From Escherichia phage humlepung, in sequence record MN850564.1: a stretch of 64,000 nt of DNA, one strand, 5' to 3'. A program made the translations under genes and the position numbers. Position 1 is the first letter of the stretch, and each line of letters starts with the position of its first letter. The notes below the pieces were generated by a model. It saw nothing but the letters and a program-made list of their open reading frames with translations, was not told where the DNA came from and made no database searches. Below, one piece after another: positions 7,896 to 49,457 of this stretch.

Positions 7896-8122
7896 TTTTC
7901 AGTTCTCCTGCGATTTATAATTTTGCTGCAATAGAGAAACGAAGTAAACTCACTGGAAGAAACTACTAAGTGTTGTTCACTAGATTGAGCCATTGCCCTG
8001 AAATACATTCCAGTCAAAGCATCATAGTGACTATTCTTTCCAATTGAGGTTATATAGCCATGACTCTTTGCAGTTTGATATAAATCTATAATATCTGCGA
8101 TTTCTAATTGGGAACTACACAT
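7889..8122 (-). CDS. hypothetical protein (77 aa)
   Basis: ORF. Confidence 0.35.
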   Translation of the reverse strand: MCSSQLEIADIIDLYQTAKSHGYITSIGKNSHYDALTGMYFRAMAQSSEQHLVVSSSEFTSFLYCSKIINRRRTEKC

Positions 8123-8364
8123 AGATAATCCTCTTGTCTTCTGTAATTTTGAAAGAACAGGTACAGACCAATTTCAGAGGATGAATAGTAGAGTAACTCT
8201 ACCCTTTTTGATTCCTTACAGTGATTGGTATTTTTACCTTTCTTCGGGTTGTTTGATTTTCTCATTAAGTCTCCTTTGTAGAACAAGGCAGACCTACAGC
8301 TTTAAGTAAGATGGTACAGTAATCCATACAACAAGTCAAGAACTATTGCAAGTTAAAAAAGTTG

Positions 8365-8394
8365 TTGACAAAGTACTTGACAAGGTGTAGGCTT
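8365..8394 (+). promoter_or_regulatory. Conserved promoter/operator element TTGACAAAGTACTTGACAAGGTGT (copy 1), -35 TTGACA + 17 nt + TAGGCT
   Basis: Near-identical element at 48838-48861; both sit at minus-to-plus strand switch points. Confidence 0.55.
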
Positions 8395-8514
8395 ATAAAT
8401 ACTTAGAAGATAACTTAAAAGGTTCCTCTAAAAAGGCTATTTAAACAGATATCTTTCTGGATATCTATCTTTTATCTTAAAAGCCTTTTAAGAGGTCTTA
8501 TAAGAGGCATACCA

Positions 8515-8886
8515 ATGAAAAACAGAACAAACAAAGGCCAGTTTAAAAAAGGCCAGTCTGGAAACCCATCTGGAAGACCAAAAGGCTCTCGTAACAAAAG
8601 CTCACTCGTAAAAGCTCAACTGACCATTGATAATTCTGCTGAGTTTGCTGCAAAGTTGTTTGAAGCGATTGTTACAAGGGATGCTGCTAAGCTTGCAGAG
8701 TTCGGGTTAAACACAGATGACGTAACCATCAAGAGTATGATTGAGGTTGGTAAAACTATCTTTACTCACTCAGCAGGTGAGATGAAAGCACTTGCAGCAG
8801 ACACTAAGAAGACTCCTGATAATGGTGGTCAACAGCAGACAGATAACAAACCAACGTTCTCTGCTGTAGCGACTCTCAAAAAATAA
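8515..8886 (+). CDS. conserved phage protein with GQSGNPSGRPKG motif (DUF5681-like by recollection)
   Basis: ATG with AAGAGG RBS; N-terminal basic GNPxGRPKG motif. Confidence 0.55.
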   Translation: MKNRTNKGQFKKGQSGNPSGRPKGSRNKSSLVKAQLTIDNSAEFAAKLFEAIVTRDAAKLAEFGLNTDDVTIKSMIEVGKTIFTHSAGEMKALAADTKKTPDNGGQQQTDNKPTFSAVATLKK

Positions 8887-8967: not shown

Positions 8968-10383
8968 ATGAGCGAATTATTTAAACATGCGCACCTTCAT
9001 GCAGGTCGAACTGAAAATGGTGCTGTAAACCATACTTCATCAATGTCTGCTCTTGTAGACTTTTACAAAGCTGCTGGTTCGAGCCGTAGCAATGTAGAAA
9101 TCTTACCAGACCTGTTCTACAAAGCTTTGCGTGAGGATGTTGATGTTGCAGTTCGTATTTTACTGCATATGCGAGATGTACGAGAAGGTATGGGTGAGCG
9201 TAAAGCTTTCCGAACTGTTTTACTTAAAGCAATTGAAGATAAGATTTTAGAACCTACACAGGTTCTTCGCATTATGGATAAGATTGCAGAACTTGGTCGT
9301 TTTGATGACTTCAAAATCTTCGTAGGTACTCGTTTTGAGACAGATGCCTTCAAACATTTAGAAGCAGCATTACTAGACCCTGCAACAGCAGGTTTGGCGG
9401 CTAAGTGGTTACCACGAGTCAAACCACGTCATAAGCAGTTTGTAAAACGTTTCTGCAAGTTTGCCAACTTGAGTGAGAAAGAGTACCGCACACTGTTGTC
9501 TGCACTATCTGATACAGTTGAGCAAAAAATCTCTGCTAATGAGTTTGGTAAGATTGACTACAGTAAGATTCCTTCACTTGCTGCTGCACGTTACCAAAAA
9601 CTGTTTAACCGTAAAGATGGAGAGCGTTACAAAGCTTACATCGAGTCCTTATCAAAAGGTGAGACTAAGATTAACGCTGGTGCTGTTTACCCATACGATG
9701 TGATTAAATCTGTCAAGTATGGTAATGCAGATGTTGCTAATGAGCAGTGGAAAGCACTACCAAACTGGATGGCAGAAGGTGAAAACATCTTGTGTATGTC
9801 TGATGTATCAAGTTCAATGTCTTGGGTGAATTTTGGCTCCATTACTGCTCTGGATATTGGTGTATCACTTGCCTTGTATGTAGCAGAACGCAATACAGGT
9901 TGCTTTAAGAATGAGTTAATGGTTTATTCAACAAACCCTCACTTCATCGAACTGAGTGGTGATTTACGAAACCGTCATCGTCAGGTGATGCGACACGTTG
10001 AATATGGCTCAACTAACTTACAAGCAGCTTTTGACCGCATTCTTGAAACAGGTAAAAGAAACAACTTGACTCAGAAAGATATGCCAAGTAAGCTTATCAT
10101 CTTCTCCGATATGGAGTTCAATCAGGTTGATGGAGCTAACGGTCGTACAAACTTTGAAGCAATTCAGAGTAAGTACAAAAAAGCTGGATATGAGATGCCA
10201 CAACTGGTATTCTGGTACTTAGCAAACCGTAATGGTACTTGCGAAGTATCTGTTAAGGATAACGGTGTAGCAATGGTATCAGGGTTCTCTCCAGCCACTT
10301 TAAAAGCTCTGCTTGGTGGTGAGAAGTTTGACCCAATCAGTGTAATGCTCAAAGCAGTAATGATTGACCGTTATATCTGGTAA
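8968..10383 (+). CDS. Ro60/TROVE-like protein with C-terminal von Willebrand factor A domain (DUF2828-like N-terminus by recollection)
   Basis: MIDAS-like DVSSSMS...T...IIFSDMEFN resembling Ro60 vWA (DVSASM / FTDCETN); N-terminal TENGA...S..ALVDFY motif. Confidence 0.6.
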   Translation: MSELFKHAHLHAGRTENGAVNHTSSMSALVDFYKAAGSSRSNVEILPDLFYKALREDVDVAVRILLHMRDVREGMGERKAFRTVLLKAIEDKILEPTQVLRIMDKIAELGRFDDFKIFVGTRFETDAFKHLEAALLDPATAGLAAKWLPRVKPRHKQFVKRFCKFANLSEKEYRTLLSALSDTVEQKISANEFGKIDYSKIPSLAAARYQKLFNRKDGERYKAYIESLSKGETKINAGAVYPYDVIKSVKYGNADVANEQWKALPNWMAEGENILCMSDVSSSMSWVNFGSITALDIGVSLALYVAERNTGCFKNELMVYSTNPHFIELSGDLRNRHRQVMRHVEYGSTNLQAAFDRILETGKRNNLTQKDMPSKLIIFSDMEFNQVDGANGRTNFEAIQSKYKKAGYEMPQLVFWYLANRNGTCEVSVKDNGVAMVSGFSPATLKALLGGEKFDPISVMLKAVMIDRYIW

Positions 10384-10402
10384 AAAGTTTTAAAAAGGGT
10401 AT

Positions 10403-10431
10403 TGACAATGTGTTTAATACCCTTTAATATG
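10403..10431 (+). promoter_or_regulatory. Sigma70-like promoter TTGACA-17-TAATAT inside inverted repeat AAGGGTATT/AATACCCTT
   Basis: Exact -35 consensus, 17-nt spacer, TAATAT -10; upstream of tRNA array. Confidence 0.6.
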
Positions 10432-10548
10432 TTCTACATAGAAGCGAAATGAGAGCTTTTCTAAGATACTGAAAAATATTTTAAAAAAGTTCTTGACAAC
10501 CACTAAAAAATAATGTTAAAGTGGTTACATAGAGTTTGAAAAGTTTAT

Positions 10549-10625
10549 CTCTGTTTAGCTCAGCTTGGTAGAGCGTTCCGTTTGGGGCGGTAAGGCCGGA
10601 GGTTCAAGTCCTCCAACAGAGACCA
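10549..10625 (+). tRNA. tRNA-Pro (anticodon TGG)
   Basis: 7-bp acceptor ctctgtt/aacagag, D-arm gctc/gagc, T-loop TTCAAGT, encoded CCA. Confidence 0.75.
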
Positions 10626-10632
10626 AATTAAT

Positions 10633-10710
10633 GTTCCAGTAGACAAAATGGTAAAGTCACCACTCTTTCAAAGTGGATATTTGAGGGTTCAAATCCCTTC
10701 TGGAACGCCA
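10633..10710 (+). tRNA. tRNA-Glu (anticodon TTC)
   Basis: Acceptor gttccag/ctggaac, anticodon loop cTTTCaa, T-loop TTCAAAT, CCA. Confidence 0.7.
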
Positions 10711-10715
10711 GTTTT

Positions 10716-10791
10716 GACAGAAGACCAATTACAGCAAACTTAATCTTATTCATCTGAAGGTAAATCGGACAAAGAAGAGATTTGGTCTGGT
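10716..10791 (+). repeat. Structured repeat element copy a (5' GACAGAAGACCA ... 3' TGGTCTGGTC)
   Basis: Member of four-copy family with conserved CAGAAGACC...TACAGCAA...GGTCTGG and covarying flanks. Confidence 0.5.
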
Positions 10792-10801
10792 CATTAAGAA
10801 T

Positions 10802-10878
10802 TGCGGGTATAGAGAAAGGGCGTCTCACATGTCTCATTAGCATGGTATCGGCAGGTTCGACTCCTGCACCCGCCTCCA
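10802..10878 (+). tRNA. tRNA with CAT anticodon (Met or Ile2)
   Basis: Anticodon stem catgt/gcatg, loop cTCATta, T-loop TTCGACT, CCA; 1:72 mismatch. Confidence 0.6.
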
Positions 10879-10882
10879 ATTT

Positions 10883-10946
10883 TGCAGAAGACCGTATTCA
10901 GCAACAAAATACTTTTTGCGGATAAAAGAAAAAACACGGTCTGGCA
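10883..10946 (+). repeat. Structured repeat element copy b (5' TGCAGAAGACCGT ... 3' ACGGTCTGGCA)
   Basis: Same family; flank covariation tGC/GCa. Confidence 0.5.
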
Positions 10947-10955
10947 ATGTATTAA

Positions 10956-11029
10956 GGTTAGGAAGCACATAAGGTATGTGCGGTCGCCTGTTAAGCGAAT
11001 GGCACAGGGTTCGAATCCCTGACTAACCG
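10956..11029 (+). tRNA. tRNA-Asn (anticodon GTT)
   Basis: Anticodon loop ctGTTaa, T-arm caggg-TTCGAAT-ccctg, acceptor 6/7 paired; no encoded CCA. Confidence 0.65.
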
Positions 11030-11040
11030 CAAAATTAAAT

Positions 11041-11128
11041 GTGTCGTTATCCCGTAGATGGTAGCGGTGGGGACTGTAAATCCCTTGTCATTGAGACTCG
11101 GTAGGTTCGACTCCTACACGGCACACCA
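11041..11128 (+). tRNA. tRNA-Tyr (anticodon GTA), type II with long variable arm
   Basis: 85 nt, acceptor gtgtcgt/acggcac, loop ctGTAaa, T-loop TTCGACT, CCA. Confidence 0.7.
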
Positions 11129-11133
11129 ATAAA

Positions 11134-11210
11134 GGCTATGTAGTTTAACTGGAGAAAATACTCCCCTGTCACGGGAGATGATGTGAGTTCAAGTCTCATC
11201 GTAGCCGCCA
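11134..11210 (+). tRNA. tRNA-Asp (anticodon GTC)
   Basis: Acceptor ggctatg/cgtagcc, loop ctGTCac, T-loop TTCAAGT, CCA. Confidence 0.7.
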
Positions 11211-11237
11211 ATTTTGAGAGGGCTATTTAGCCCCTCC

Positions 11238-11272
11238 CTTAAAGAGTTCTTACGAGTATTCTTTAAGGGAGC
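11238..11272 (+). repeat. Hairpin CCCTTAAAG-(agTTCTTACGAGtatt)-CTTTAAGGG
   Basis: 9-bp perfect stem; loop motif TTCTTACGAG recurs at 14277-14286. Confidence 0.5.
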
Positions 11273-11348
11273 AGAAGACCAAATACAGCAAGAATGTATG
11301 AAATTTCAAGCCAATTTAATTTTGAAAATTTAAAACTTGGTCTGGCTC
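11269..11348 (+). repeat. Structured repeat element copy c (5' GAGCAGAAGACCAA ... 3' TTGGTCTGGCTC)
   Basis: Same family; flank covariation GAGC/GCTC. Confidence 0.5.
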
Positions 11349-11354
11349 AACAAA

Positions 11355-11493
11355 TTTACAGAAGGCCGTTTACAGCAAAACTTAAACAATCTATTTCTCC
11401 GGTAAAGAAAAGGCGAAGGTTCGATTCCTTCACTCGGCAGATGTCGAGTTGGTGTAATGGTAGCACTTAAGATGATAAACAACGGTCTGGTAA
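11355..11493 (+). ncRNA. Candidate structured ncRNA (element copy d): terminal stem TTACAGAAGGCCGTT/AACGGTCTGGTAA enclosing tRNA-like T-arm and D-arm hairpins
   Basis: Internal gaagg-TTCGATT-ccttc hairpin with T-loop consensus, acceptor-like hairpin, D-arm-like gtgtAATGGTAgcac; no complete tRNA fold. Confidence 0.3.
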
Positions 11494-11639
11494 TTACCTT
11501 TGTAGATAAGTTATTAAGCTTACTTGTGAGTATGCGACCACAAAGGGTGAATGGGTAAATTCTAGATTTAAACCCAAAAAGGCACATCGCTACAGACCTT
11601 AAGCAAGTCTGGGTAGCTTATCTACAAAGATAATTTAAT

Positions 11640-11715
11640 GGAAGTGTAGCAGAATGGTGATGCGGCAGACTTTTAATCTGACAGGCGATGGGTTCGAATC
11701 CCTCCACTTCTACCA
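11640..11715 (+). tRNA. tRNA-Lys (anticodon TTT)
   Basis: Acceptor ggaagtg/cacttct, loop cTTTTaa, T-loop TTCGAAT, CCA. Confidence 0.65.
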
Positions 11716-11719
11716 ATAT

Positions 11720-11796
11720 GGTTCAGTCGCAGATAAGGTAATGCAAGGGTCTCATAAGCCCTATGAATGTGGGTTCGATTCCCATCTGAACCTCCA
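11720..11796 (+). tRNA. tRNA with CAT anticodon (Met or Ile2), second copy
   Basis: Perfect acceptor ggttcag/ctgaacc, loop cTCATaa, T-arm gtggg-TTCGATT-cccat, CCA. Confidence 0.65.
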
Positions 11797-11797
11797 A

Positions 11798-11873
11798 GCT
11801 GGTATAGTTAAGAAGGTTATAACACTCCCCTGATAAGGGAACATCGGTGGTTCGATTCCACCTACCAGTACCA
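11798..11873 (+). tRNA. tRNA-Ile (anticodon GAT)
   Basis: Loop ctGATaa, T-arm ggtgg-TTCGATT-ccacc, CCA. Confidence 0.65.
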
Positions 11874-11888
11874 ATTTCAATAAAGTTG

Positions 11889-11917
11889 TTGACATTGAGA
11901 TGTGACTACTTTATAGT
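11889..11917 (+). promoter_or_regulatory. Sigma70-like promoter TTGACA-17-TATAGT inside the tRNA region
   Basis: Exact -35, 17-nt spacer, TATAGT -10. Confidence 0.55.
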
Positions 11918-12121
11918 AACCTTAGTTTTCGTTGCGTAGCGTCTATTTTGCAAATTTAAAATAAATGCAAACGACAATGTTTTTCTGGCAGTAGCTTGAT
12001 AGGCTAAACACCAGTGAGGTCTTCCAATCCCTCATCAAAGAATTTGGCGTACTCGCCCACGGTATGATTAATAAGGTGGGCATCTTTAAGGGCTTTCTAA
12101 GAGAGTCTTTAAAGATAATTA

Positions 12122-12203
12122 CGGGGCGTATCTCAGCGGTCTTCTAAACCGCCGTTAACCGAGTAAGTGGAGTATGCGGGTTCGAGTCCTGCCGCCTCGA
12201 CCA
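12122..12203 (+). tRNA. Atypical tRNA-like gene, anticodon stem-loop gcggt-cTTCTaa-accgc (TCT, Arg-like), no recognisable D-arm, 23-nt extra segment
   Basis: 7-bp acceptor cggggcg/cgcctcg, T-arm gcggg-TTCGAGT-cctgc, CCA; only 7 nt between acceptor and anticodon stem. Confidence 0.4.
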
Positions 12204-12346
12204 ATTTAGTTAGCAGATTACTTAGACGACCTTAGCGGGTCTTCCTGTAGGGAGGTGGTCTGTATCTCATGTTTTCCAGAACATGTAAATAATCTGAGAA
12301 GGGGCTTTACAGTGTTGAGATAATACGGTAAGCTTCGAATTATAGT

Positions 12347-12429
12347 ATGGGACGATATTAAGACTCTAAGGCATGAGCAACGGCTTCCAACACCGTTTCA
12401 AAGGGGTTCAACTCCTCCGTCCCATGCCA
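12347..12429 (+). tRNA. Atypical tRNA-like gene, anticodon loop compatible with CCA (Trp) closed by a C-A pair, or 9-nt loop
   Basis: Perfect acceptor atgggac/gtcccat plus CCA, T-loop TTCAACT; D-region irregular. Confidence 0.35.
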
Positions 12430-12442
12430 AAGTCTTATTAGG

Positions 12443-12530
12443 GGTAGGTAGCGGCTAATGGTAGCCAAACTGTCTTGAAAACAGTTGCCACTGTAGAGAT
12501 ACGGTGAGGGTTCGACTCCTTTACTTACCG
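12443..12530 (+). tRNA. tRNA-Ser (anticodon TGA), type II
   Basis: 88 nt, stem actgt/acagt with loop cTTGAaa, long variable arm, T-loop TTCGACT. Confidence 0.65.
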
Positions 12531-12787
12531 CCTAATAAGATTTAAAGCCAAGCTTCATTCGGATGTTGCTTTGGTATACCGCGTGTATTGTTGTACGCAC
12601 TGATAAAGCACCTAGTAGGTGTCACGGAGAAGAGATAATATCAAGCTCTCCAAAGGTTCTAGTCACCGGATTAAACAAGACTATGCAAAGACCTTTTTAG
12701 GTCTTTTTAGAGGGCTTCTAAGGTTATTACAGCTTGTTGTGGAACCTTGTTGCTTAGGTTCTTAGAAGTTCTCTAAAAAGATTTAAT

Positions 12788-12865
12788 GGGAGATTGACGG
12801 TAATTGGTAAACCTACCATCCTTAGAAGTTGGTGTTTGAGGGTTCGAATCCCTTGTCTCCTACCA
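12788..12865 (+). tRNA. tRNA with TAG anticodon (Leu-type anticodon but short, type-I length)
   Basis: Acceptor gggagat/gtctcct with G-U pairs, loop ctTAGaa, T-arm gaggg-TTCGAAT-ccctt, CCA. Confidence 0.5.
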
Positions 12866-12872
12866 AATTAAT

Positions 12873-12948
12873 GCAGGTGTAGCAAAATGGTTATGCGGCT
12901 GACTCTTAATCAGTAAGACGATGGGTTCAATTCCCTCCACCTGTACCA
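12873..12948 (+). tRNA. tRNA-Lys (anticodon CTT)
   Basis: Stem gctga/tcagt, loop ctCTTaa, T-loop TTCAATT, CCA. Confidence 0.55.
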
Positions 12949-12954
12949 GACATT

Positions 12955-13030
12955 GGGGTCATAGTTTATATGGTTAAAATTCGAGTTTTGCAAACTTGGG
13001 AACTGAGTTCAATTCTCAGTGACTCCACCA
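12955..13030 (+). tRNA. tRNA-Ala (anticodon TGC)
   Basis: G3:U70 wobble pair in acceptor (Ala identity element), loop ttTGCaa, T-arm ctgag-TTCAATT-ctcag, CCA. Confidence 0.75.
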
Positions 13031-13036
13031 ATTAGT

Positions 13037-13111
13037 GCATCCATAGTTTAAACGGGAAAATTACAGTCTTCCAAACTGAGGTTGAGGGTTCGATTCCCTC
13101 TGGATGCTCCA
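13037..13111 (+). tRNA. tRNA-Gly (anticodon TCC)
   Basis: Perfect acceptor gcatcca/tggatgc, loop ctTCCaa, T-arm gaggg-TTCGATT-ccctc, CCA. Confidence 0.7.
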
Positions 13112-13117
13112 AACAAT

Positions 13118-13194
13118 GCTGCTTTCGTATAATTGGCTATTACACATCCCTTGTAAGGATGGAAATGCAGGTTCGAGTCCTGTGAGCAGCACCA
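13118..13194 (+). tRNA. tRNA-Thr (anticodon TGT)
   Basis: Perfect anticodon stem catcc/ggatg, loop ctTGTaa, T-loop TTCGAGT, CCA. Confidence 0.75.
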
Positions 13195-13199
13195 ATTCA

Positions 13200-13283
13200 G
13201 AGGTCAAGTGAAAGACCGCTGGTGTCAACTGAAGACCGTAACAAATTCCACGGAGTTGAGTTAGCGGCACAACTTCAGACCTC
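13200..13283 (+). repeat. Stem element AGAGGTC...GACCTCT enclosing a GAAGACCGTAAC motif
   Basis: 7-bp terminal inverted repeat; internal CTGAAGACCGTAACAAA resembles the 5' arm of elements a-d. Confidence 0.4.
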
Positions 13284-13289
13284 TTTCAC

Positions 13290-13364
13290 ACTCGCTTAGT
13301 TTATATGGTAAAACACCACCCTTACAAGATGAAGAAAAAGGTTCAAGTCCTTTAGTGAGTACCA
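13290..13364 (+). tRNA. tRNA-Val (anticodon TAC), tentative isotype
   Basis: Acceptor actcgct/agtgagt, loop cTTACaa, perfect T-arm aaagg-TTCAAGT-ccttt, CCA; anticodon stem has mismatches. Confidence 0.55.
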
Positions 13365-13365
13365 T

Positions 13366-13443
13366 GTTCCAGTATCCCAATTGGCAGAGGATGCAAGCTC
13401 AAACCTTGTATTAGTGACGGTTCGAATCCGTCTTGGAACACCA
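13366..13443 (+). tRNA. tRNA with CAA anticodon (Leu-type anticodon, type-I length)
   Basis: Acceptor gttccag/ttggaac, stem gcaag/cttgt, loop ctCAAac, T-arm gacgg-TTCGAAT-ccgtc, CCA. Confidence 0.55.
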
Positions 13444-13462
13444 ATTTAAAGAGGCTATTTAG

Positions 13463-14020
13463 ATGAGATATTTGAAGTATGCTTCATGGATTTTCCTAGC
13501 TTTACTAGAGCCATTTGCAGCAACCCTAGCAGTCATCTTAGCACCTTTCGTAGTTCCATTCTACAGTGAGAAGAAAGGACACTTACCTTTCGGGTTCAGA
13601 TGGATGGAGACATATGACAACCCAATTGATGGTGATGAAGGTCACGTTAAAAGATGGGCTAATATTAGATGGATTGGTAAACTAGGTGTCTACATGCAAA
13701 GAGTTGGATGGCTCTGGAGAAACAAAGCTTATAACTTCTCTTACCATGTATTAGGAAGAGATGTAAAAGATGTTACTAAGTGGAAAGGTAATATCAACGT
13801 AAGTTCTAACCCTGAAGATAATCAGACTGGTTATCTCCTAATGTGGAACAGGAATGCTTGGGGATTATTCGCTTTTATCCCATCAATTAAAATCTTTGGT
13901 AAACAATTTTACTGGAGAATTTATATTGGATGGAAACTAAAAAGTGTTGTCCCAGAAGAAAGAGCATTCTCAAGGGAAAGAGTTATGTTGGCATTCTTTA
14001 TTCATCCACTGAGAAAGTAA
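13463..14020 (+). CDS. hypothetical membrane protein (185 aa, Trp-rich) encoded inside the tRNA array
   Basis: ATG with AAAGAGG RBS; N-terminal hydrophobic segment. Confidence 0.55.
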   Translation: MRYLKYASWIFLALLEPFAATLAVILAPFVVPFYSEKKGHLPFGFRWMETYDNPIDGDEGHVKRWANIRWIGKLGVYMQRVGWLWRNKAYNFSYHVLGRDVKDVTKWKGNINVSSNPEDNQTGYLLMWNRNAWGLFAFIPSIKIFGKQFYWRIYIGWKLKSVVPEERAFSRERVMLAFFIHPLRK

Positions 14021-14028
14021 AGATTTAA

Positions 14029-14104
14029 AGGGGATTAGTTTACAAGGTTAAAACCTCGGTCTTTGAAATCGAAGAAGTTGGTTCAATTCCAACATCCCCC
14101 GCCA
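14029..14104 (+). tRNA. tRNA-Gln (anticodon TTG)
   Basis: Loop ctTTGaa, perfect T-arm gttgg-TTCAATT-ccaac, CCA; 1:72 mismatch. Confidence 0.6.
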
Positions 14105-14106
14105 AT

Positions 14107-14185
14107 GCTCCATTACTCCAATTGGCAGAGAGGCCAGACTTAAAATCTGTGTTATGTATCGGTTCGAATCCGATATGGAGTACCA
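14107..14185 (+). tRNA. tRNA with TAA anticodon (Leu-type anticodon, type-I length)
   Basis: Loop cTTAAaa, T-arm atcgg-TTCGAAT-ccgat, CCA; D-arm resembles the CAA tRNA. Confidence 0.5.
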
Positions 14186-14190
14186 AATTT

Positions 14191-14266
14191 AGCGGTATAG
14201 CATAACTGGCAATGCAGCAGTCTCTGAAGCTGTCTTATTAAGGTTCAAATCCTTATGCCGCTGCCA
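14191..14266 (+). tRNA. tRNA-Gln (anticodon CTG), tentative
   Basis: Acceptor agcggta/tgccgct, D-stem gcat/atgc, loop ctCTGaa, T-arm taagg-TTCAAAT-cctta, CCA. Confidence 0.55.
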
Positions 14267-14267
14267 C

Positions 14268-14294
14268 TTCTAAGGATTCTTACGAGAGTCCTTA
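14268..14294 (+). repeat. Hairpin with loop motif TTCTTACGAG (second copy)
   Basis: aaggaTTCTTACGAGagtcctt; motif shared with 11250-11259. Confidence 0.45.
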
Positions 14295-14297
14295 AAT

Positions 14298-14373
14298 GTG
14301 GCCTTATCATAAATGGTAATGACCCATGCTGTGAACATGGTCTATACGGGTTCAAATCCCGTAGGTCACCCCA
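14298..14373 (+). tRNA. tRNA-His (anticodon GTG)
   Basis: Perfect anticodon stem ccatg/catgg, loop ctGTGaa, T-arm acggg-TTCAAAT-cccgt, CCA. Confidence 0.7.
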
Positions 14374-14379
14374 ATTTAT

Positions 14380-14455
14380 AGTCCAAGTAGCTTATATGGT
14401 TAAAGCGCGTGTCTGAAAAACATGAGAAGAGGGTTCAAATCCCACTGGACTACCA
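14380..14455 (+). tRNA. tRNA-Phe (anticodon GAA)
   Basis: D-stem gctt/aagc, loop ctGAAaa, T-loop TTCAAAT, CCA; acceptor register uncertain by 1 nt. Confidence 0.6.
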
Positions 14456-14471
14456 ATTTCAAAGGTGCTTA

Positions 14472-15206
14472 ATGAAAGAGATGACAGAACAAGGTAAGGA
14501 GATTTTTAATCTCTTAAAAACCGGTAAAGGGTTTTCTAACCCACTTATTACTGGTGCAGCAGTTCTCGGTGGAACCGTAGCTGCCTCTACATCACTTGTA
14601 AGCTCTATTAGCTCTGTAACAGACCCTACAATGAAGGAGAAGCTTGTTGCTGCTGGACTTACAACAGTCCTTCTAAACAGCTTTACAACAATCCTGACAA
14701 GCACTACAGCAACCACTAAGACCCTAACAGACTACGGTCAAAAGTCTATTGATGAGTTTTCATCACGTATGCAGGTAGCAAAGGGATATTCCAATGTTAT
14801 GGGTGCAGCAGGAGAACAAGTTGGTTGTACACCATTCAGTGGTATTATGGGTGTTGCTACAGAGTATGGTCAAAAAGCTATTGACATGATTAACAGTACA
14901 CTAGATAGTGTTAATGGTGTGTTAAGTGACTTACAAGACGCTATTGATGAGGGTCTTGATACTGTTTCTGATTTAGCTAATCAGGCTGTTAGTAAGATTA
15001 ATGAAGGTATTTCAAAGATTACAGCTTATGCAGATGAAGTTGTGCAGATGATTGAAGAAGAAGCTGCCCTTATTGCAGAGTACCTTAAAACGAATATCAA
15101 TGGGTTCTTAGCAGGTATCTTACCAGACTGGTTTGATGATGCTTGTAAAACTGGTGTAATTGATGCTATTGCAACACCAGAAATGAAGAACGCATTACAG
15201 AAATAA
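14472..15206 (+). CDS. hypothetical protein (244 aa, Ala/Thr/Ser-rich)
   Basis: ATG at 14472 with AAAGG RBS; the track start at 14409 would overlap tRNA-Phe. Confidence 0.5.
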   Translation: MKEMTEQGKEIFNLLKTGKGFSNPLITGAAVLGGTVAASTSLVSSISSVTDPTMKEKLVAAGLTTVLLNSFTTILTSTTATTKTLTDYGQKSIDEFSSRMQVAKGYSNVMGAAGEQVGCTPFSGIMGVATEYGQKAIDMINSTLDSVNGVLSDLQDAIDEGLDTVSDLANQAVSKINEGISKITAYADEVVQMIEEEAALIAEYLKTNINGFLAGILPDWFDDACKTGVIDAIATPEMKNALQK

Positions 15207-15207
15207 T

Positions 15208-15300
15208 GGAAGATTAACCCTAAAAGGTAAGGGAGCAGTTTGCTAAACTGCCAGTAGCTGAGAAATCGGTGTACCAGTTCAAGTCTGGTATCTTCCTCCA
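15208..15300 (+). tRNA. tRNA-Ser (anticodon GCT), type II
   Basis: Perfect acceptor ggaagat/atcttcc, stem gcagt/actgc, loop ttGCTaa, long variable arm, CCA. Confidence 0.7.
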
Positions 15301-15304
15301 ATTT

Positions 15305-15380
15305 GAATCCGTGACAGAAATGGCTATGTGCCTGTCTGCAAAACAGGTTTATAAGGGTTCGAGTCCCTTCGGATTCTCCA
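15305..15380 (+). tRNA. tRNA-Cys (anticodon GCA)
   Basis: Perfect acceptor gaatccg/cggattc, stem cctgt/acagg, loop ctGCAaa, T-arm aaggg-TTCGAGT-ccctt, CCA. Confidence 0.75.
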
Positions 15381-21488: not shown

Positions 21489-21521
21489 TAACAATAATAA
21501 GACATTCTGGAGAATTTTACA

Positions 21522-41892: not shown

Positions 41893-42222
41893 TTAATCTG
41901 CCAACCTTAAATTGAAATTAACACCAAATTTTTCACACACTTCCAACATATACTCAAGAGAGACATTGCCAGTGAGATGGATTATGTTGGATACGCGAGC
42001 CTGAGAGATACCACAAATTTTAGCAACTTGCTCTTGAGAAAGACCTCTGGATTTAATCTCTCTCTTAAAACGATGTGCAACGAAGTCTCTCATTTCGTCT
42101 ACACCCATTGGACAAATATAACTCTCCATTTCAGCCTCTCTATCAGCCTCCCAATCATCTTGTGGAGCATAAGGGTCAAAAGCTTCATTCATCTTTCTTC
42201 TTCCGTTTGCGTGAAGTGTCAA
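41893..42222 (-). CDS. helix-turn-helix DNA-binding protein (XRE-like)
   Basis: LSQEQVAKICGISQARVSNIIH resembles an HTH motif. Confidence 0.5.
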   Translation of the reverse strand: MTLHANGRRKMNEAFDPYAPQDDWEADREAEMESYICPMGVDEMRDFVAHRFKREIKSRGLSQEQVAKICGISQARVSNIIHLTGNVSLEYMLEVCEKFGVNFNLRLAD

Positions 42223-45541: not shown

Positions 45542-45592
45542 AATCCCTCCTATACAAGATGTAGTATAAGGTACTCTTCCCTGAGCACCTTG

Positions 45593-46096
45593 TCAACTTA
45601 GTTTTGCAAACTCTCCGTGGAGTTTAATAGCAGCTTCACAGTAAGCTTTATGGGCTTCTTCTGGTGTGTCAAATAAACCAAGTGATGTCCTTTTACCTCT
45701 GCATGTTATAGCTGCCCTCCACTTATTGCAGTCTTTAAAGTAATGTACACCCTTGTAACCTGATTTGTTAGTCGTCTGCTTTACCCTATTTTGAGCATTT
45801 CCGTATTTATCAGTCTCCCTAAGATTAGAAATGTGATTATTACTTCTGTTACCATCAATGTGGTCTATCATCTTAGTGGGTTTGTAACCATGTTCGAACC
45901 ACCAAACGAGGTGATGAATTTTTATTACGACATCTTTGAATTTAAGTACTTTGTAACCGTAAGCATCAGCACCTCCTGCAATCTGCCCAGCTTTAGCTTG
46001 TCTATTCCTGTCATACTTGTTGTAGAAGACCCCTTTGTCGGGGTCGTAAATAAAATTATCCTTGTAGTCTTGAAGTGTTAGTGTACGGCGTACCAT
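45593..46096 (-). CDS. HNH homing endonuclease with AP2-type DNA-binding domain
   Basis: HNH core HHLVWWFEHGY...IDHIDGNRSNNHISNLR; C-terminal YKGV...LGLFDTPEEAHKAY AP2-like segment. Confidence 0.75.
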   Translation of the reverse strand: MVRRTLTLQDYKDNFIYDPDKGVFYNKYDRNRQAKAGQIAGGADAYGYKVLKFKDVVIKIHHLVWWFEHGYKPTKMIDHIDGNRSNNHISNLRETDKYGNAQNRVKQTTNKSGYKGVHYFKDCNKWRAAITCRGKRTSLGLFDTPEEAHKAYCEAAIKLHGEFAKLS

Positions 46097-48777
46097 GTCT
46101 TACCTACCTTACCAGTGCCTGTAACAAGCGTCTTACTCTTTAATCCAAGATTTTTTGATGCTTGACCATACATTCTATCAATAATCTCCTTAACATCAGG
46201 TACATCTTTGGTTGGAACCTCTAAAGAGACCTCATCGTGGTAACTACAGACCCACCTAGCACCAATAGCTGGCTTCCTACCATTTAGAACTGTAAGCTTG
46301 CGCTCTGTTAACTCCCTGTTAGCCAAGTTAATACCCTCATTCTGCACCTGCGCCTCACTGCCCATAAGTGTGTAATTCAATAACTTATGTGGAGATTTAC
46401 ACCATAACCACGCCCCAGCAACCTTGATATAGCCACCTTTTGCAATTGCAGAAGTCTTTCCGAAAACCTCTTCAAGTGCTTTCTTAGTTGCTTTGAAGTC
46501 TTCCTCTAGTCTATCAAGCAGCTTTTTAATCTTAGGTAGACGCACAAAGTAAGTTTGTTTAGTCAATGCACCCTCTTCCGTAGATGATGCCTTGATAGTT
46601 TTTGCAAACTTCTCGTCTCCGGCTCCAAATAACAGGGCGTAGATGCCATTTTTGCTCTTCTTACGACCTTTTGTAATCTCGTGGAGAAGTTCCTCATCCT
46701 GTGTCTCCCTGCAACGAACAATATCCTCTTCTTTGTTAAGACCAAAGTAAATACTGTTCAGTGTATGCGCATCAGTCCCTGTGTAGACTTCATAGAGGTC
46801 ATTTTCAGCATCATAACGCAGATACTTGTCAGTTTCTGGGTTAAGATACTTGTCAAGATGTTTACAGTAGTATCTACCATCATCTTGCTTAGTGAACTCT
46901 ACTGACTCTTTACCCTCAGTTACCGCTTTAGTGAAGTCTTCATCACCCATAAAGTTACAAAGAAGAACTAGCTGGGCTGAGTTTTGGTCTACGGAGATGA
47001 TATCTGTACCATCTTCACAAGTCCACACCTCCCTCATAGGTGCTCCATAGACAGCAGCACCAGACGGTACGTTTACAATACCATATTGTGTCATACGTCC
47101 AGTTGAAGTGCCAAACACCATTGCACCAGCACTAAGGCGACCATCAGGACGAATCTGGTTCAACCAACCTTTTTCATCATCCTTTGAGTTCTCAATAGTT
47201 CTGCGTCGGTGCATCAAAGTATAGTACTTAGCAATCTTCTGTCCAAGCTCACCTTCAATCGTATCATAAGATGATTCAGTAAGTTTTGGTGAAGTACGGA
47301 TTAAGCAAGGTTCAAGCAAATCTGTGTATTTCTTCACAGACCAGTTATGCTCGATGTACTGTACACCTTCATGTTCAACATAACTCAAACCACACCGCTC
47401 AACCATTTCCTGCCACTTAGGATGCTTTGTAATCATCTTTTTATTGTCTTTGAAACGACAAACTTTGATAGGGCGACCATCTGAGTCTTTCTTGTAATTC
47501 CAGTCATCTGGAATCCAACCAACTGATTTCAAGTAGTCTTTAACAACTGCTACCTGAGTCATACGAGAAACTTCAAACTCAATTGGTGTATATGGTGCAT
47601 CAATCAAACCTGTGTAGCGACTTGACTCAAGTTCAAAGTGATTGACAACGTGACTGTTATAGTACTTCACAGTCTTGACTGTTTTTACTGGTTTCCAGTC
47701 TTTGCATTTTTTGCCAATCTTTGCATTCAACTCGTTGCAGATTGCACGAGCATCCTTCATCGCTACAAAACCCTCTTTGTACTCTTCACCAGTTACAGAG
47801 TTGGTTGGTGTATAGCAATTTCTCTTTTCAATGTTAAAAATCTTTGTAGTTGGCTTACCAAATGGTTTGATTTCATAAGTCTGCATCTCACCATTACGTA
47901 CCTGCTGACGATACTTTGTCTTAGGGTACTTGGTAATTCTCTTCAGTCCATCTGCATGACCAAATGTTTCAACATACTCATTCCAAGCTTTTGCAAACTC
48001 TTCTCCAGTGACTTTACCTTTGGTCTTAATAGTTGGAGGAAGATGTGGTTCAACCTCTGAAGCAAGTTCATTAGTCAATTTGTCAAGCTCCTTTACATGG
48101 AACTCCATAAGCTCCTTATCAGCTTTCCAACCATTGATAGCTTGCTGGCTCATCCAGAAAGATGTCTCTTTAGCTCGCATGTAAGTCTCATAAGTGTCTA
48201 TACCACACTTCTTAAGCTTGAGATACTCGTTATCAAGTGCCCGTTTAGTTTTGGCATTAATACGGATATCTTCTACAACACGAGTGAAGATTTCTGCATT
48301 CCACACACCCCAATGTTCAATCTCTGGTTTACGGACACCAACACGAGCACCCCATGCAGCCAAACCATGAGCACCTTTATAACCCTTTGGGGTTGGCCTA
48401 TCCATCCACTGAACACGAGACTGGATAAGAGAGTCCTGAAAGAAATTACTCCACGGTTTACACTTTGGATTATCAAAGTTCCATAAATCAGGTGCAATGT
48501 GATTGAAAACCCACCAGTCATAACCGAGACCATTATGGATGCAAAGACGTTTTGCCTTTAACGCAAATTCAACACCTTCACGTAAACCACCTTTGATGTA
48601 CTTAGTGTACTTGTGACCGAGGATAGGCTCATCTGTAAAGACCCATACAGGTGGCTCTTCATCGTCAGATTTATAGTCTGCAAAGGCCATTACGTGAACT
48701 TTAGTGAACTCAAGGAGTAAACCATCAGTTTCTGTATCACCAACCAAATGTAAGTTTTTAAAATCTACGTTTTCCAT
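46078..48777 (-). CDS. DNA polymerase, family A, with 3'-5' exonuclease domain
   Basis: Exo motif GDTETDGL, Pol A motif C-like HDEVSLEV; start at MENVDFKN with AGGGAG RBS (track start 48807). Confidence 0.85.
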   Translation of the reverse strand: MENVDFKNLHLVGDTETDGLLLEFTKVHVMAFADYKSDDEEPPVWVFTDEPILGHKYTKYIKGGLREGVEFALKAKRLCIHNGLGYDWWVFNHIAPDLWNFDNPKCKPWSNFFQDSLIQSRVQWMDRPTPKGYKGAHGLAAWGARVGVRKPEIEHWGVWNAEIFTRVVEDIRINAKTKRALDNEYLKLKKCGIDTYETYMRAKETSFWMSQQAINGWKADKELMEFHVKELDKLTNELASEVEPHLPPTIKTKGKVTGEEFAKAWNEYVETFGHADGLKRITKYPKTKYRQQVRNGEMQTYEIKPFGKPTTKIFNIEKRNCYTPTNSVTGEEYKEGFVAMKDARAICNELNAKIGKKCKDWKPVKTVKTVKYYNSHVVNHFELESSRYTGLIDAPYTPIEFEVSRMTQVAVVKDYLKSVGWIPDDWNYKKDSDGRPIKVCRFKDNKKMITKHPKWQEMVERCGLSYVEHEGVQYIEHNWSVKKYTDLLEPCLIRTSPKLTESSYDTIEGELGQKIAKYYTLMHRRRTIENSKDDEKGWLNQIRPDGRLSAGAMVFGTSTGRMTQYGIVNVPSGAAVYGAPMREVWTCEDGTDIISVDQNSAQLVLLCNFMGDEDFTKAVTEGKESVEFTKQDDGRYYCKHLDKYLNPETDKYLRYDAENDLYEVYTGTDAHTLNSIYFGLNKEEDIVRCRETQDEELLHEITKGRKKSKNGIYALLFGAGDEKFAKTIKASSTEEGALTKQTYFVRLPKIKKLLDRLEEDFKATKKALEEVFGKTSAIAKGGYIKVAGAWLWCKSPHKLLNYTLMGSEAQVQNEGINLANRELTERKLTVLNGRKPAIGARWVCSYHDEVSLEVPTKDVPDVKEIIDRMYGQASKNLGLKSKTLVTGTGKVGKTWYAVH

Positions 48778-48837
48778 TTTTACTCCCTCTAAAATCATTA
48801 ACCTCATACATTACTGCAAAAAATTATAAAAAGCAAG

Positions 48838-48867
48838 TTGACAATGTACTTGACAAGGTGTTAATCT
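48838..48867 (+). promoter_or_regulatory. Conserved promoter/operator element TTGACAATGTACTTGACAAGGTGT (copy 2)
   Basis: 23/24 identical to 8365-8388; lies in divergent intergenic region. Confidence 0.55.
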
Positions 48868-49034
48868 TTGCGAAGTGGGTTTTTACTTAAAAGGTCACTT
48901 AACAGTTTAACTATACAGATACTTTAAAACTCTTAAAAGATTATTTAATAGCTTTTAAAAAGCTTTAAAGTATAACGTATAGAATACGTTAAGATAAAAG
49001 ATTAAAACTTAATAGTTACTTAAAAGAGGCTTAC

Positions 49035-49457
49035 ATGCAGAAAATGTTTGTTCACCCAGACATAGCTGACTTTGTTAGAGCTTTGCAGAAGTTGGAAGAA
49101 CTTGACATTGCTGCTCAGCGGGAATATGCTCACCATCACAGGAGAATGGTTGATATACAACATGAAATAGAGTTGTCTGAAAACTATGAAGATGACTTAA
49201 AATGCTCTGTATTTGAGCATATGAAAGATGTTGCTACAGCGAGACGTAAAGCTAAAGACACAGTTGCTTTACTAGATTCTCTTAAAAAGAGGTTGCAAAG
49301 TGGTACAGACCTGTGTAATCTAGCGTCACTGATTAACGATGTTGAAACTTCTTGGGATAGGCACTATTATCCACGTTCTGAAAAGACACTTGACTTTTCT
49401 TCATCCGAAAACTTAAAATGTTCTAGAAAGAAACTTAACCAACTGAGAGAGAAATAA
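49035..49457 (+). CDS. hypothetical protein (140 aa)
   Basis: ATG with AAGAGG RBS. Confidence 0.5.
   Translation: MQKMFVHPDIADFVRALQKLEELDIAAQREYAHHHRRMVDIQHEIELSENYEDDLKCSVFEHMKDVATARRKAKDTVALLDSLKKRLQSGTDLCNLASLINDVETSWDRHYYPRSEKTLDFSSSENLKCSRKKLNQLREK

Follow-up and report, generated by a model that had tools for sequence, protein, structure and literature searches.

Felix O1 encodes neither an RNA polymerase nor a known polymerase modifier, and Whichard et al. (2010, PMC3185647) predicted a promoter, P41, at the junction of its genes 40 and 41, while describing the 96-97 region as having 'no other obviously homologous sequences'. In GenBank MZ726791 (phage ASO1A) promoters are marked at both places, and at the second of them the upstream of two TTGACA hexamers is taken as the -35 box; P41 and the MZ726791 annotation differ in the hexamer and in the -10 box that they choose. 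Four further systems offer points of comparison. PeSLs are repeated early-promoter/stem-loop cassettes of T4-like phages, as the available text of the PeSL papers describes them (PMC2839356, PMC4122927). The Z-element is an experimentally known spacer contact of the beta' zipper of the RNA polymerase core, which occupies -24/-22 to -18, some 4 bp ahead of the -10 box, and boosts promoters with a non-consensus -10 even when a -35 is present (Yuzenkova et al. 2011, PMC3173786). At lambdoid PR' promoters a -35-like element is bound by repositioned sigma region 4 in Q loading (bioRxiv 10.1101/2022.03.25.485794), and the CII/C1 proteins of lambda and P22 recognise the motif TTGC-N6-TTGC (quoted in PMC4837284). 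Promoters at the two Felix O1 loci have been predicted before; newly described here is a doubled -35, a conserved variant. Neither Whichard 2010 (PMC3185647) nor MZ726791 mentions the doubled hexamer, its conservation or its third copy.

The window analysed here, 64,000 nucleotides from Escherichia phage humlepung (MN850564.1), belongs to a Felixounavirus genome and contains a 26-base element, AGTTGACAAWGTACTTGACAAGGTGT, on the + strand at 8363-8388 (site A) and 48836-48861 (site B), which correspond to the Felix O1 gene 40/41 and 96 (DNA polymerase)/97 junctions. The original prediction of a near-identical element at both minus-to-plus strand switches, containing two TTGACA hexamers as a direct repeat, was confirmed: the copies are the same at 24/26 positions, the site A copy (TGTTGACAAAGTACTTGACAAGGTGT) differing from the predicted consensus by one mismatch and the site B copy by none, and each holds two exact TTGACA hexamers with starts 12 bp apart (8365 and 8377 at site A, 48838 and 48850 at site B). 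Both intergenic regions are divergent, site A lying between a leftward ORF (8104-8286) and a rightward ORF (8515-8886), and site B between the leftward DNA polymerase gene, which probably starts at 48777, not at 48807, and a rightward ORF (49035-49457). A search for further copies, suggested along with the prediction, yielded none within the 64-kb window at up to three mismatches, and 100 dinucleotide shuffles gave a chance expectation of 0. Neither the window nor the complete Felix O1 genome has exact TTGACA pairs at 12-bp spacing other than those of sites A and B, and a pattern scan of IMG/VR with the exact 21-nt core matched only Felix O1 relatives. The likeness between A and B exceeds the 26 nt, taking in an upstream A-tract and ACTTAAAAGG about 47 nt downstream. 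A third paralogue (site C) was found at Felix O1 position 11269, outside the window, with a 13-bp register and, in relatives, between two co-directional genes; the three sites are paralogous promoter-leader cassettes, alike over about 150 nt. Because this third paralogue sits between co-directional genes, the element is not confined to strand switches, and the predicted location, correct for A and B, is an incidental link rather than a defining trait.

Site A, on the gp41 side, comprises the following parts:

8311..8339, - strand: leftward promoter candidate TTGACT-N17-TACCAT, from the consensus scan, invariant in all relatives
8354..8362, + strand: UP-like A-tract TAAAAAAGT, at about -46..-38, read directly
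8365..8370, + strand: hexamer 1, TTGACA, proposed -35; exact consensus, unchanged in 12 distinct relatives' sequences
8371..8376, + strand: interior AAGTAC, free to vary, its 6 columns showing at least 10 changes in relatives
8377..8382, + strand: hexamer 2, TTGACA, in the spacer at -23..-18, unchanged among relatives
8386..8393, + strand: TG and proposed -10 TAGGCT (8388-8393), 17 bp past hexamer 1
8398..8403, + strand: alternative -10 AATACT, 15 bp past hexamer 2 and paired with it in GenBank MZ726791
8400..8514, + strand: AT-rich leader, a predicted 5' UTR with a long hairpin, conserved
8515..8886, + strand: first rightward gene, encoding a DUF5681 protein, homologue of Felix O1 gp41

Hexamer 1 of this site is that of P41 (Whichard 2010, PMC3185647), and the AAAAAGTTnTTGACA context of the A-tract recurs at promoter-like sites at 10484 and 43195 (- strand). 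Among relatives the interior reads AAGTAC, AAGGAC, TTCCTC, AGCCTC, AGGGGA or AATGAC, and TGTA with TAnnnT is kept in all of them (TAGGCT, TAGCCT, TAAGTT, TAGTGT); the TG abuts the -10 (TGTAGGCT), one position nearer than in a canonical extended -10. Relatives also have AAYACT 15-16 bp past hexamer 2 at site A, which is without an equivalent at sites B and C. The leader is 85-90% identical to those of Mooglevirus and Suspvirus, against 74-80% for the adjacent gene, and has a folding z-score of -2.9.

Site B, on the gp97 side, is built in a similar manner:

48808..48836, - strand: leftward (polymerase) promoter candidate TTGCTT-N17-TAATGT, inferred from the alignment of relatives and unflagged by the scan
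48827..48835, + strand: UP-like A-tract TAAAAAGCA, read directly, with AAAAAGCAAG invariant in relatives
48838..48843, + strand: hexamer 1, TTGACA, proposed -35, unchanged in 22 distinct sequences
48850..48855, + strand: hexamer 2, TTGACA, in the spacer at -24..-19, unchanged in relatives
48859..48867, + strand: extended -10, TGt with TAATCT (48862-48867), 18 bp past hexamer 1
48874..49034, + strand: AT-rich leader with hairpins, 81-86% identical across genera, the level of the polymerase gene
49035..49457, + strand: first rightward gene, homologue of Felix O1 gp97

Here the interior, ATGTAC, varies to ATGCAC, ATACAC, ATGCGC, ATTCAC, AATAAC, AATCAC and AAGCAC, and TGtTAATCT is a canonical extended -10, kept as TG-N-TA(A/G)TCT in the Suspvirus and Mooglevirus relatives. 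Pairing in the leader hairpin AACGTAT-AGA-ATACGTT survives changes on both arms. Neither the site A nor the site B leader matches Rfam, the only Rfam families anywhere in the window being tRNAs. The leftward candidate has an invariant AAGCAA, and its -10 retains the form TAnnGT (TAATGT, TAAGGT, TAGGGT, TAGTGT); 1 bp separates its -35 from hexamer 1. A perfect leftward TATAAT at 48823-48828 was rejected as the polymerase promoter, as it is unconserved in relatives. The polymerase and primase/helicase genes lie next to site B.

In order to rationalise this arrangement, we propose that the element forms the upstream part of a rightward promoter of the host sigma70 type, in which a UP-like A-tract is followed by hexamer 1 as the -35, a spacer of 17 or 18 bp, TG and a weak TAnnnT -10 (TAGGCT or TAATCT). 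The site A promoter would start the gp41 unit, with a predicted start near 8400, and the site B promoter the gp97 unit, with a predicted start near 48874. Hexamer 1 matches TTGACA at 6/6 positions at both 8365-8370 and 48838-48843, and T-12, A-11 and T-7 are present 17 bp (A) and 18 bp (B) past it. As both -10 boxes match the consensus at only 3/6 and the consensus promoter scan demanded at least 4/6 per -10 box, the two promoters are absent from its list. Placement and direction are right for a promoter, the boxes are conserved in relatives and the spacer interior is variable, and the AAAAAG(N3-4)TTGACA arrangement that includes hexamer 1 is shared with other promoter-like sites of the window that have better -10 boxes. 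The outgroups phiEa21-4, MM7 and Pectobacterium Wc4-1 have a single-hexamer TTGACA-N17/18-(TG)TAnnnT at the homologous positions. Judged from sequence, rightward transcription very probably starts at both sites, and we lean towards the combined statement that these are host sigma70-type promoters in which hexamer 2 would be read by RNA polymerase.

The expression data for these units consist of RT-PCR timing, in which genes 41, 42 and 96-99 peak at 25 min and ORF22 peaks at 5 min, so that timing differs among the three cassettes (Whichard 2010, PMC3185647). Of the predicted 'strong early promoter', the promoter is upheld by context and comparison, but 'early' finds no support in maxima at 25 min. 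In the literature searched, neither a transcriptome nor a map of start sites was found for a Felix O1-like phage, and the available part of the PhageMaP preprint on Bas63 contains nothing on the intergenic regions of sites A and B. A promoter-like site with a single hexamer, TTGACA-N17-TACCTT at 45568..45596 (- strand), has the 11-mer TTGACAAGGTG in common with hexamer 2 at A and B. A T4-type late promoter was rejected: relatives do not keep the TATAAATA at 8394-8401, and TATAAATA occurs 3 times in the window against 3.45 expected. Sites for PhoB, OmpR, PhoP, ArcA, IHF, DnaA, FNR, lambda CII and T4 MotA were likewise rejected on inspection by eye, owing to misfits of period, half-site or orientation.

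The second hexamer is as conserved as the first. Across the three paralogous promoters, both hexamers are invariant in the Felixounavirus, Suspvirus and Mooglevirus relatives, with none of the 36 hexamer columns changed and at least 22 changes in the 19 interior columns, the 6-7 bases between the hexamers varying freely. The register between the hexamers is 11-13 bp across sites, and hexamer 2 stops 4-6 bp short of the -10 of the promoter. Spacer length is the same as in the single-hexamer outgroups, and hexamer 2 therefore arose by substitution within a fixed spacer. We suggest that hexamer 2 would be a separately selected spacer element at about -24..-18 rather than the -35 of a second promoter. 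A tentative candidate for its reader, from sequence comparison, is RNA polymerase itself, for which hexamer 2 might be a second docking site for sigma region 4 or, at the position of the Z-element, a spacer contact of the beta' zipper that aids promoters with a weak -10; either option would tune polymerase recruitment or opening. We know of no mechanism that uses a second -35 hexamer in the spacer.

The same layout recurs in uncultured T4-like phages. A degenerate-pattern scan of IMG/VR gave matches enriched for promoter features, although such a scan alone does not prove selection on hexamer 2, because TTGACA-N17-TAnnnT promoters are common; we therefore turned to an unbiased retrieval in which T4-like loci were fetched through gp55, independently of the motif. 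An exact doubled TTGACA stands upstream of gene 55 in 56/67 unique sequences so obtained; hexamer 1 is 17 bp from the -10 in 53/56, the register is 11 or 12 bp, and the consensus is 89-94% identical to Felix site A over about 36 nt. The T4-like promoter lies 22-35 nt from the start of gene 55 and is directed antisense into the gene before it, so that it may serve some purpose other than ordinary gene expression, and in the metagenomic examples L174 and L227 the doubled hexamer precedes co-directional genes. This recurrence points to RNA polymerase as the reader, and not to a phage-specific repressor. A hairpin spanning the interior and the transcribed start was rejected as a general trait, being absent at A, at B and in the 11-bp-register group; site C has CCCC in its interior and GGGGG after the -10, and many T4-like sequences have GGG/CCC.

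One feature elsewhere in the window has to be considered together with the alternatives:

41893..42222, - strand: gp85 homologue, a small HTH_3 (XRE-type) protein (Pfam HTH_3, 6e-10), candidate trans-factor

The two hexamers could instead form an operator overlapping the core promoter, through which a phage regulator shuts off or times the three cassettes; an operator for a common regulator was one option of the original prediction. Invariant half-sites around a free interior are a classic protein-binding footprint, a protein bound at hexamer 2 would block polymerase, and the temporal control of Felix O1 is unexplained (Whichard 2010, PMC3185647). The sole recognisable candidate is gp85, a PHROG scan of 20 small neighbouring proteins having found no other regulator, sigma, anti-sigma or antiterminator. 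By tblastn its homologues track the doubled-hexamer clade, with none in the Erwinia and Pectobacterium relatives and none in the syntenic operon of phiEa21-4; as the two clades coincide, a phage regulator is possible in the Felix lineage. This co-occurrence is, however, circumstantial, amounting to one clade-level event shared by many clade-specific genes, the promoter of gp85's own operon (42855, - strand) lacks the doubled hexamer, and among solved structures gp85 matches only a designed repeat protein, which is uninformative. Moreover, XRE proteins usually bind inverted rather than direct repeats, and the repeats here are direct, with neither dyad symmetry nor a fixed half-site spacing, a register of 11, 12 or 13 bp being awkward for a rigid dimer. 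The half-sites equal the sigma70 -35 consensus exactly, and the layout is conserved in unrelated T4-like phages. The operator reading loses ground to the T4-like recurrence and the shifting register, and we regard it as rather doubtful.

The tandem promoter of the original prediction, two overlapping promoters with each hexamer serving as a -35 and starts about 12 nt apart, finds its evidence at site A, where AATACT lies 15 bp past hexamer 2 and the pair is annotated in MZ726791. It lacks support as a general reading, since no TAnnnT occurs 14-18 bp past hexamer 2 at sites B and C: the hexamers at these distances are GCGAAG, CGAAGT, GAAGTG, AAGTGG and AGTGGG at site B and G-rich at site C, none combining A at position 2 with T at position 6. 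A 15-bp spacer is also poor, and the T4-like set holds the distance from hexamer 1 to the -10 at 17 bp, with hexamer 2 moving by a single base; we consider overlapping promoters unlikely. It is also conceivable that these are real promoters whose main job is not mRNA synthesis but replication priming or polymerase parking, the doubled hexamer raising occupancy. A priming version would involve a persistent RNA-DNA hybrid in the AT-rich leader, in the way that replication is primed at T4 oriF and oriG; in a parking version, the polymerase held there would occlude the promoter lying back to back with it, the leftward one of the polymerase gene here and that of gene 55 in the T4-like phages. Long conserved AT-rich untranslated leaders follow each copy, site B stands beside the polymerase and primase/helicase genes with the leftward -35 candidate a single base pair from hexamer 1, and the T4-like promoter is antisense and close to the gene 55 start. 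Yet the third Felix cassette, L174 and L227 merely precede co-directional genes, and neither version explains the need for a -35 hexamer at an exact position, and we consider a main role of this kind unlikely. Finally, hexamer 2 might be a functionless by-product of promoter-cassette copying, inherited as a shared trait by three cassettes that are paralogous over about 150 nt. This reading is disfavoured and extremely improbable: the interiors have diverged within and between genera while hexamer 2 is unchanged at three sites, its origin by substitution within the fixed spacer argues against simple copying, and it is conserved independently in the T4-like lineage.

The preferred reading, a host sigma70-type promoter with hexamer 2 read by RNA polymerase, is of practical as well as general interest. 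Felix O1-like phages are widely used in typing and biocontrol of Salmonella and E. coli. The promoters at A and B head units with replication genes and, further downstream, tRNA and virion genes, so their anatomy matters for phage engineering and for the reading of transcriptomes. The general question for promoter biology is what role a second consensus -35 plays at -23..-18, where it coincides with the region of polymerase-spacer contacts and is conserved in two unrelated phage lineages. Should hexamer 2 be neutral to polymerase, the elements remain useful as well-defined strong promoter cassettes. A bolder proposal, which we put forward as speculation with the odds against it, is that the spacer-embedded 'tandem -35' is an unrecognised and functionally distinct core-promoter architecture, kept or reinvented in unrelated myoviruses and mediated by polymerase; the cases in its favour are the three cassettes of Felix O1-like phages and the gene 55 junction of the uncultured T4-like phages. 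It might act by letting sigma region 4 re-dock, by parking polymerase so that a back-to-back promoter is occluded, or by firing non-coding or R-loop transcripts; if true, it could supply the missing timing control in phages without known polymerase-modifying proteins.

Set against the described systems, sites A and B resemble the consensus sigma70 early promoters of coliphages, with which they share the A-tract at about -46..-38, the exact -35, the 17/18-bp spacer, the TG, the TAnnnT and the position before the first gene of a unit, and from which they differ in the weak -10 (3/6) and the second exact -35 hexamer in the spacer. CII/C1 sites repeat every 10 bp, on either side of a poor -35, in promoters that need the activator. 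Our sites likewise have direct repeats that start with TTG, lie 6 bp apart and occupy the -35 region of a phage promoter, but they repeat every 11-13 bp, each repeat is itself a consensus -35 and they belong to a virulent phage. As in the PeSLs, to the extent of the available text, near-identical sigma70 cassettes with AT-rich upstream DNA are repeated in one genome (three in Felix O1); unlike the PeSLs as presented there, A and B lack a G/C-stem hairpin, of which the CCCC and GGGGG of site C are at most suggestive, and sit at core-gene junctions rather than in hyperplastic regions. The available portions of the PeSL papers (PMC2839356, PMC4122927) make no mention of a second -35 hexamer. A PeSL-type composite does exist in our window, at the tRNA-side promoter 10397-10428, where the hairpin GGGTATT/AATACCC surrounds the -35. 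With lambdoid PR' the sites share a second -35-like hexamer near a -10-type element and outside the normal 17-bp geometry; in lambda that hexamer directly precedes a -10-like pause element within the transcribed region and Q is needed, whereas hexamer 2 comes 4-6 bp before the -10 of its own promoter. No Q-like protein was found among the scanned proteins or in the RefSeq annotation, and a sigma-dependent pause geometry was rejected, as there is no consistent TAnnnT one register (11-13 bp) past the promoter -10, and none at sites B and C. In position hexamer 2 agrees with the Z-element, lying at -23..-18 (A) and -24..-19 (B). The Z-elements AACCT, AACAT and AATGT follow a loose consensus (PMC3173786), whereas hexamer 2 is an exact TTGACA that floats by 1-2 bases, its TGACA/GACAA bearing no resemblance to AACCT or AACAT. 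A reader of the Z type would be universal, which fits the recurrence of the doubled hexamer in unrelated phages.

The two copies of the element lie on the plus strand of the window:

8363-8388, plus strand: site A, the 26-mer AGTTGACAAWGTACTTGACAAGGTGT with one mismatch, at the gene 40/41 junction of Felix O1 (8.36 kb)
48836-48861, plus strand: site B, an exact AGTTGACAAWGTACTTGACAAGGTGT, at the Felix O1 junction of gene 96 (DNA polymerase) with gene 97 (48.84 kb)

Each copy contains an exact pair of TTGACA hexamers spaced 12 bp start to start (hexamer 1 upstream, hexamer 2 downstream) and has a leftward gene block on one side and a rightward block on the other, confirming the original prediction of a near-identical element with a doubled TTGACA at two strand switches. 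A search for more copies returned none in the window at up to three mismatches (and none in 100 shuffles), and neither the window nor the complete Felix O1 genome has another exact TTGACA pair at 12-bp spacing. About 250 Felix O1-like phages (LinBro, momo and wV8 among them) match the DNA flanking both copies at 97-99% identity, and the window starts at approximately Felix O1 position 13150. Similarity between the sites extends beyond the 26 nt to an upstream A-tract and to the word ACTTAAAAGG about 47 nt downstream. A related third copy, TTAAAAAAGTGTTGACA-N7-TTGACATTGGTAACTT, is found beyond the window, upstream of ORF22 in Felix O1 and relatives; as this third paralogue is flanked by two same-strand genes, the element is not a strand-switch marker. 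It is a member of a small family of promoter-leader cassettes.

Judged from its sequence, the element very probably represents the -35-to-TG portion of two rightward sigma70 promoters. Hexamer 1 is preceded by AAAAAG(N3-4), a context shared by other sites, some of them ahead of the tRNA array, where a lone TTGACA has a better -10 box, and is followed by TG and TAGGCT at 17 bp (site A) or by TGtTAATCT at 18 bp (site B). Both -10 boxes match the consensus at just three of six positions, the critical T, A and T, which is why a consensus promoter scan listed neither site. We aligned the relatives' intergenic regions, fetched via the flanking proteins and including Suspvirus (SUSP2) and Mooglevirus (Moogle, Michonne and Sf13), and observed that the TG, the TAnnnT pattern and each of the two hexamers persist while the 6-base interior between the hexamers varies freely. 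Pooled over the three sites, the 36 hexamer columns show no change and the 19 interior columns at least 22, where the background is 0.35-0.52 changes per column. Because Erwinia phages phiEa21-4 and MM7 and Pectobacterium phage Wc4-1, distant Ounavirinae, carry single-hexamer TTGACA-N17/18-(TG)TAnnnT promoters at homologous places, with a similar leader downstream, the promoter is ancestral, and the lineage of Felixounavirus, Suspvirus and Mooglevirus gained hexamer 2 inside the spacer with no change in spacer length.

The promoters are in part already on record. Whichard et al. 2010 (PMC3185647) predicted a promoter, 'P41' (TTGACA-N15-TATAGG at 21515), whose TTGACA is hexamer 1 of site A, found nothing similar in the 96-97 region and called the temporal control of Felix O1 transcription unexplained; their RT-PCR placed maximum expression at 25 min for ORF41, 42 and 96-99 and at 5 min for ORF22, a timing too coarse for assigning an expression class. 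We found no transcriptome for any Felix O1-like phage in the literature. The GenBank record of phage ASO1A (MZ726791) has promoter features at both sites: AATACT is the partner of hexamer 2 at site A, and GTTAAT that of hexamer 1 at site B. Absent from the record are the doubling of the hexamer, the conservation of that doubling and the third copy. The feature is real and mostly ordinary, consisting of predicted host-type promoters with one unusual, evolutionarily conserved twist, the doubled hexamer, which is cheap to test.

Across genera, both intergenic regions, with their leaders, are conserved as much as the adjacent genes, or more (identity 85-90% versus 74-80% at site A, 81-86% versus 83-85% at site B). 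The region at site B measures 257 nt with the polymerase start at 48777, the probable one going by the Shine-Dalgarno sequence and annotated relatives; the mechanical ORF begins at 48807 (48778-48807 region). Further features of these regions, and sites sharing the 11-mer TTGACAAGGTG (hexamer 2 plus 5 nt), which forms the -35 region of single-hexamer promoter-like sites elsewhere, are as follows:

8339-8311, minus strand: leftward promoter candidate TTGACT-N17-TACCAT, conserved, back-to-back with site A
48836-48808, minus strand: leftward promoter candidate TTGCTT-N17-TAATGT, conserved, back-to-back with site B
8400-8514: long AT-rich untranslated leader after the site A promoter, with a predicted hairpin, folding z-score -2.9
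48874-49034: long AT-rich untranslated leader after the site B promoter, with a predicted hairpin whose pairing is preserved through compensatory changes
45568-45596, minus strand: TTGACAAGGTG site with weak -10 TACCTT
Felix O1 79299: TTGACAAGGTG site with weak -10 TAGGCT

The window holds three exact copies of TTGACAAGGTG and seven at one mismatch, versus 2.0 expected. The second gene after site A (8968-10383) encodes a DUF2828/DUF7788 protein, elsewhere annotated vWFA or 'RNA-binding protein', and is directly followed by an array of 23 tRNA genes (10549-15377). The word CTTAAAAG is common to both leaders, and 11 of its 22 window copies fall in the leaders or in the 1-300 repeat region. The latter belongs to a gene-free stretch (1-1150; 34% G+C; the convergent ORF23/ORF24 gap of Felix O1) dense in short repeats, with phased AGAGCTTTTAAG-type words and 28 plus-strand copies of TGTTA(A/G) versus 60 in the other 62.8 kb, most commonly 11 bp apart (10 of 27 intervals); from its sequence, it resembles an array of iterons or protein-binding sites, such as an origin or a packaging site might have.

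The doubled hexamer recurs in T4-like phages. Among the matches listed on scanning IMG/VR with TTGACA-N6-7-TTGACA-N4-6-TAnnnT, many share A-tract-GTTG-TTGACA-AAGGGC-TTGACA-nnTG-TATAGT, carried by uncultured T4-like myoviruses that at the DNA level match cyanophage S-RIM44 and Methylophilales phage Melnitz best (~67%). The motif is divergent to gene 55, which encodes the late sigma factor, and lies 22-35 nt from that gene's start (loci L254-L333); its promoter points, in antisense, into the end of the gene before gene 55. As a pattern search finds only what it asks for, loci were also retrieved through the gp55 protein: 56 of 67 distinct upstream regions have two exact TTGACA, five have one and six none. 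In 53 of the 56, hexamer 1 stands 17 bp from the -10; 29 have a hexamer register of 12 bp and 27 one of 11 bp, with variable interiors. This strong promoter may be the source of a short RNA, antisense or non-coding, or may act by occluding the promoter of gene 55. In the same loci, the predicted start carries a conserved TATGTCC or CGGTGT, followed by ATTAATGTAAT and by a small hairpin. Among cultured phages, the T4-like consensus matches essentially only Felixounavirus site A (89-94% identity over ~36 nt). A 6.9-kb viral contig (IMG/VR 3300029582_000126) carries TTGACAAAGCACTTGACAAGGTGTATGAT at 1807-1835, identical over 22 nt to the Felix O1 site A core.

With a doubled consensus -35 conserved in two unrelated lineages that infect different hosts, in a register floating between 11 and 13 bp, sequence comparison argues for a universal reader, RNA polymerase, over a lineage-specific rigid dimer. 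We tentatively suggest that hexamer 2 is under selection as an element of the spacer and would work through the polymerase, either by a contact of the Z-element kind or by giving sigma region 4 a second place to dock. The same shared layout and floating register count against an operator for a phage regulator, which we regard as unlikely: the only recognisable regulator, a small XRE-type HTH protein homologous to gp85 (minus strand, 41893-42222), has homologues confined to the clade with the doubled hexamer and no counterpart in the syntenic operon of phiEa21-4, but this co-occurrence amounts to one clade-level coincidence and is therefore weak evidence. Of the readings in the original prediction, a promoter is well supported, as hexamer 1, TG and TAnnnT are kept in relatives; a tandem promoter does not hold in general. 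AATACT 15 bp downstream of hexamer 2 would provide a candidate -10 at site A alone, and at site B and the third paralogue none of the hexamers lying 14-18 bp further on combines the A and the T that a -10 needs, making a second overlapping promoter very unlikely. A role in occluding a promoter or firing an origin is also very unlikely. Roles as part of a T4-type late promoter or as a known RNA were rejected, as was dependence on divergent transcription, which the third copy lacks.

A polymerase-read spacer element has partial precedents. Yuzenkova et al. 2011 (PMC3173786) showed that the beta' zipper contacts the spacer between -24/-22 and -18, some 4 bp before the -10 begins, and that this 'Z-element' strengthens promoters with a non-consensus -10 even when a -35 is present. 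Hexamer 2 occupies exactly that position in Felix promoters with weak -10 boxes; it is not classed as a Z-element because the published sequences (AACCT and AACAT) do not resemble TGACA. At lambda PR' during Q loading (bioRxiv 10.1101/2022.03.25.485794), sigma region 4 binds a -35-like hexamer outside the normal geometry, although the layout of hexamer 2 differs and no Q-like protein was recognised among the proteins scanned. The nearest described repeated promoter cassettes are the PeSLs of T4-like phages (PMC2839356, PMC4122927), whose defining stem-loop sites A and B lack. The first tRNA-side promoter (10397-10428; TTGACA at 10402, TAATAT at 17 bp) has its -35 within the hairpin GGGTATT/AATACCC, the bidirectional terminator t42/t43 in the list of Whichard et al. 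(PMC3185647), and is, like the PeSLs, a promoter/stem-loop composite.
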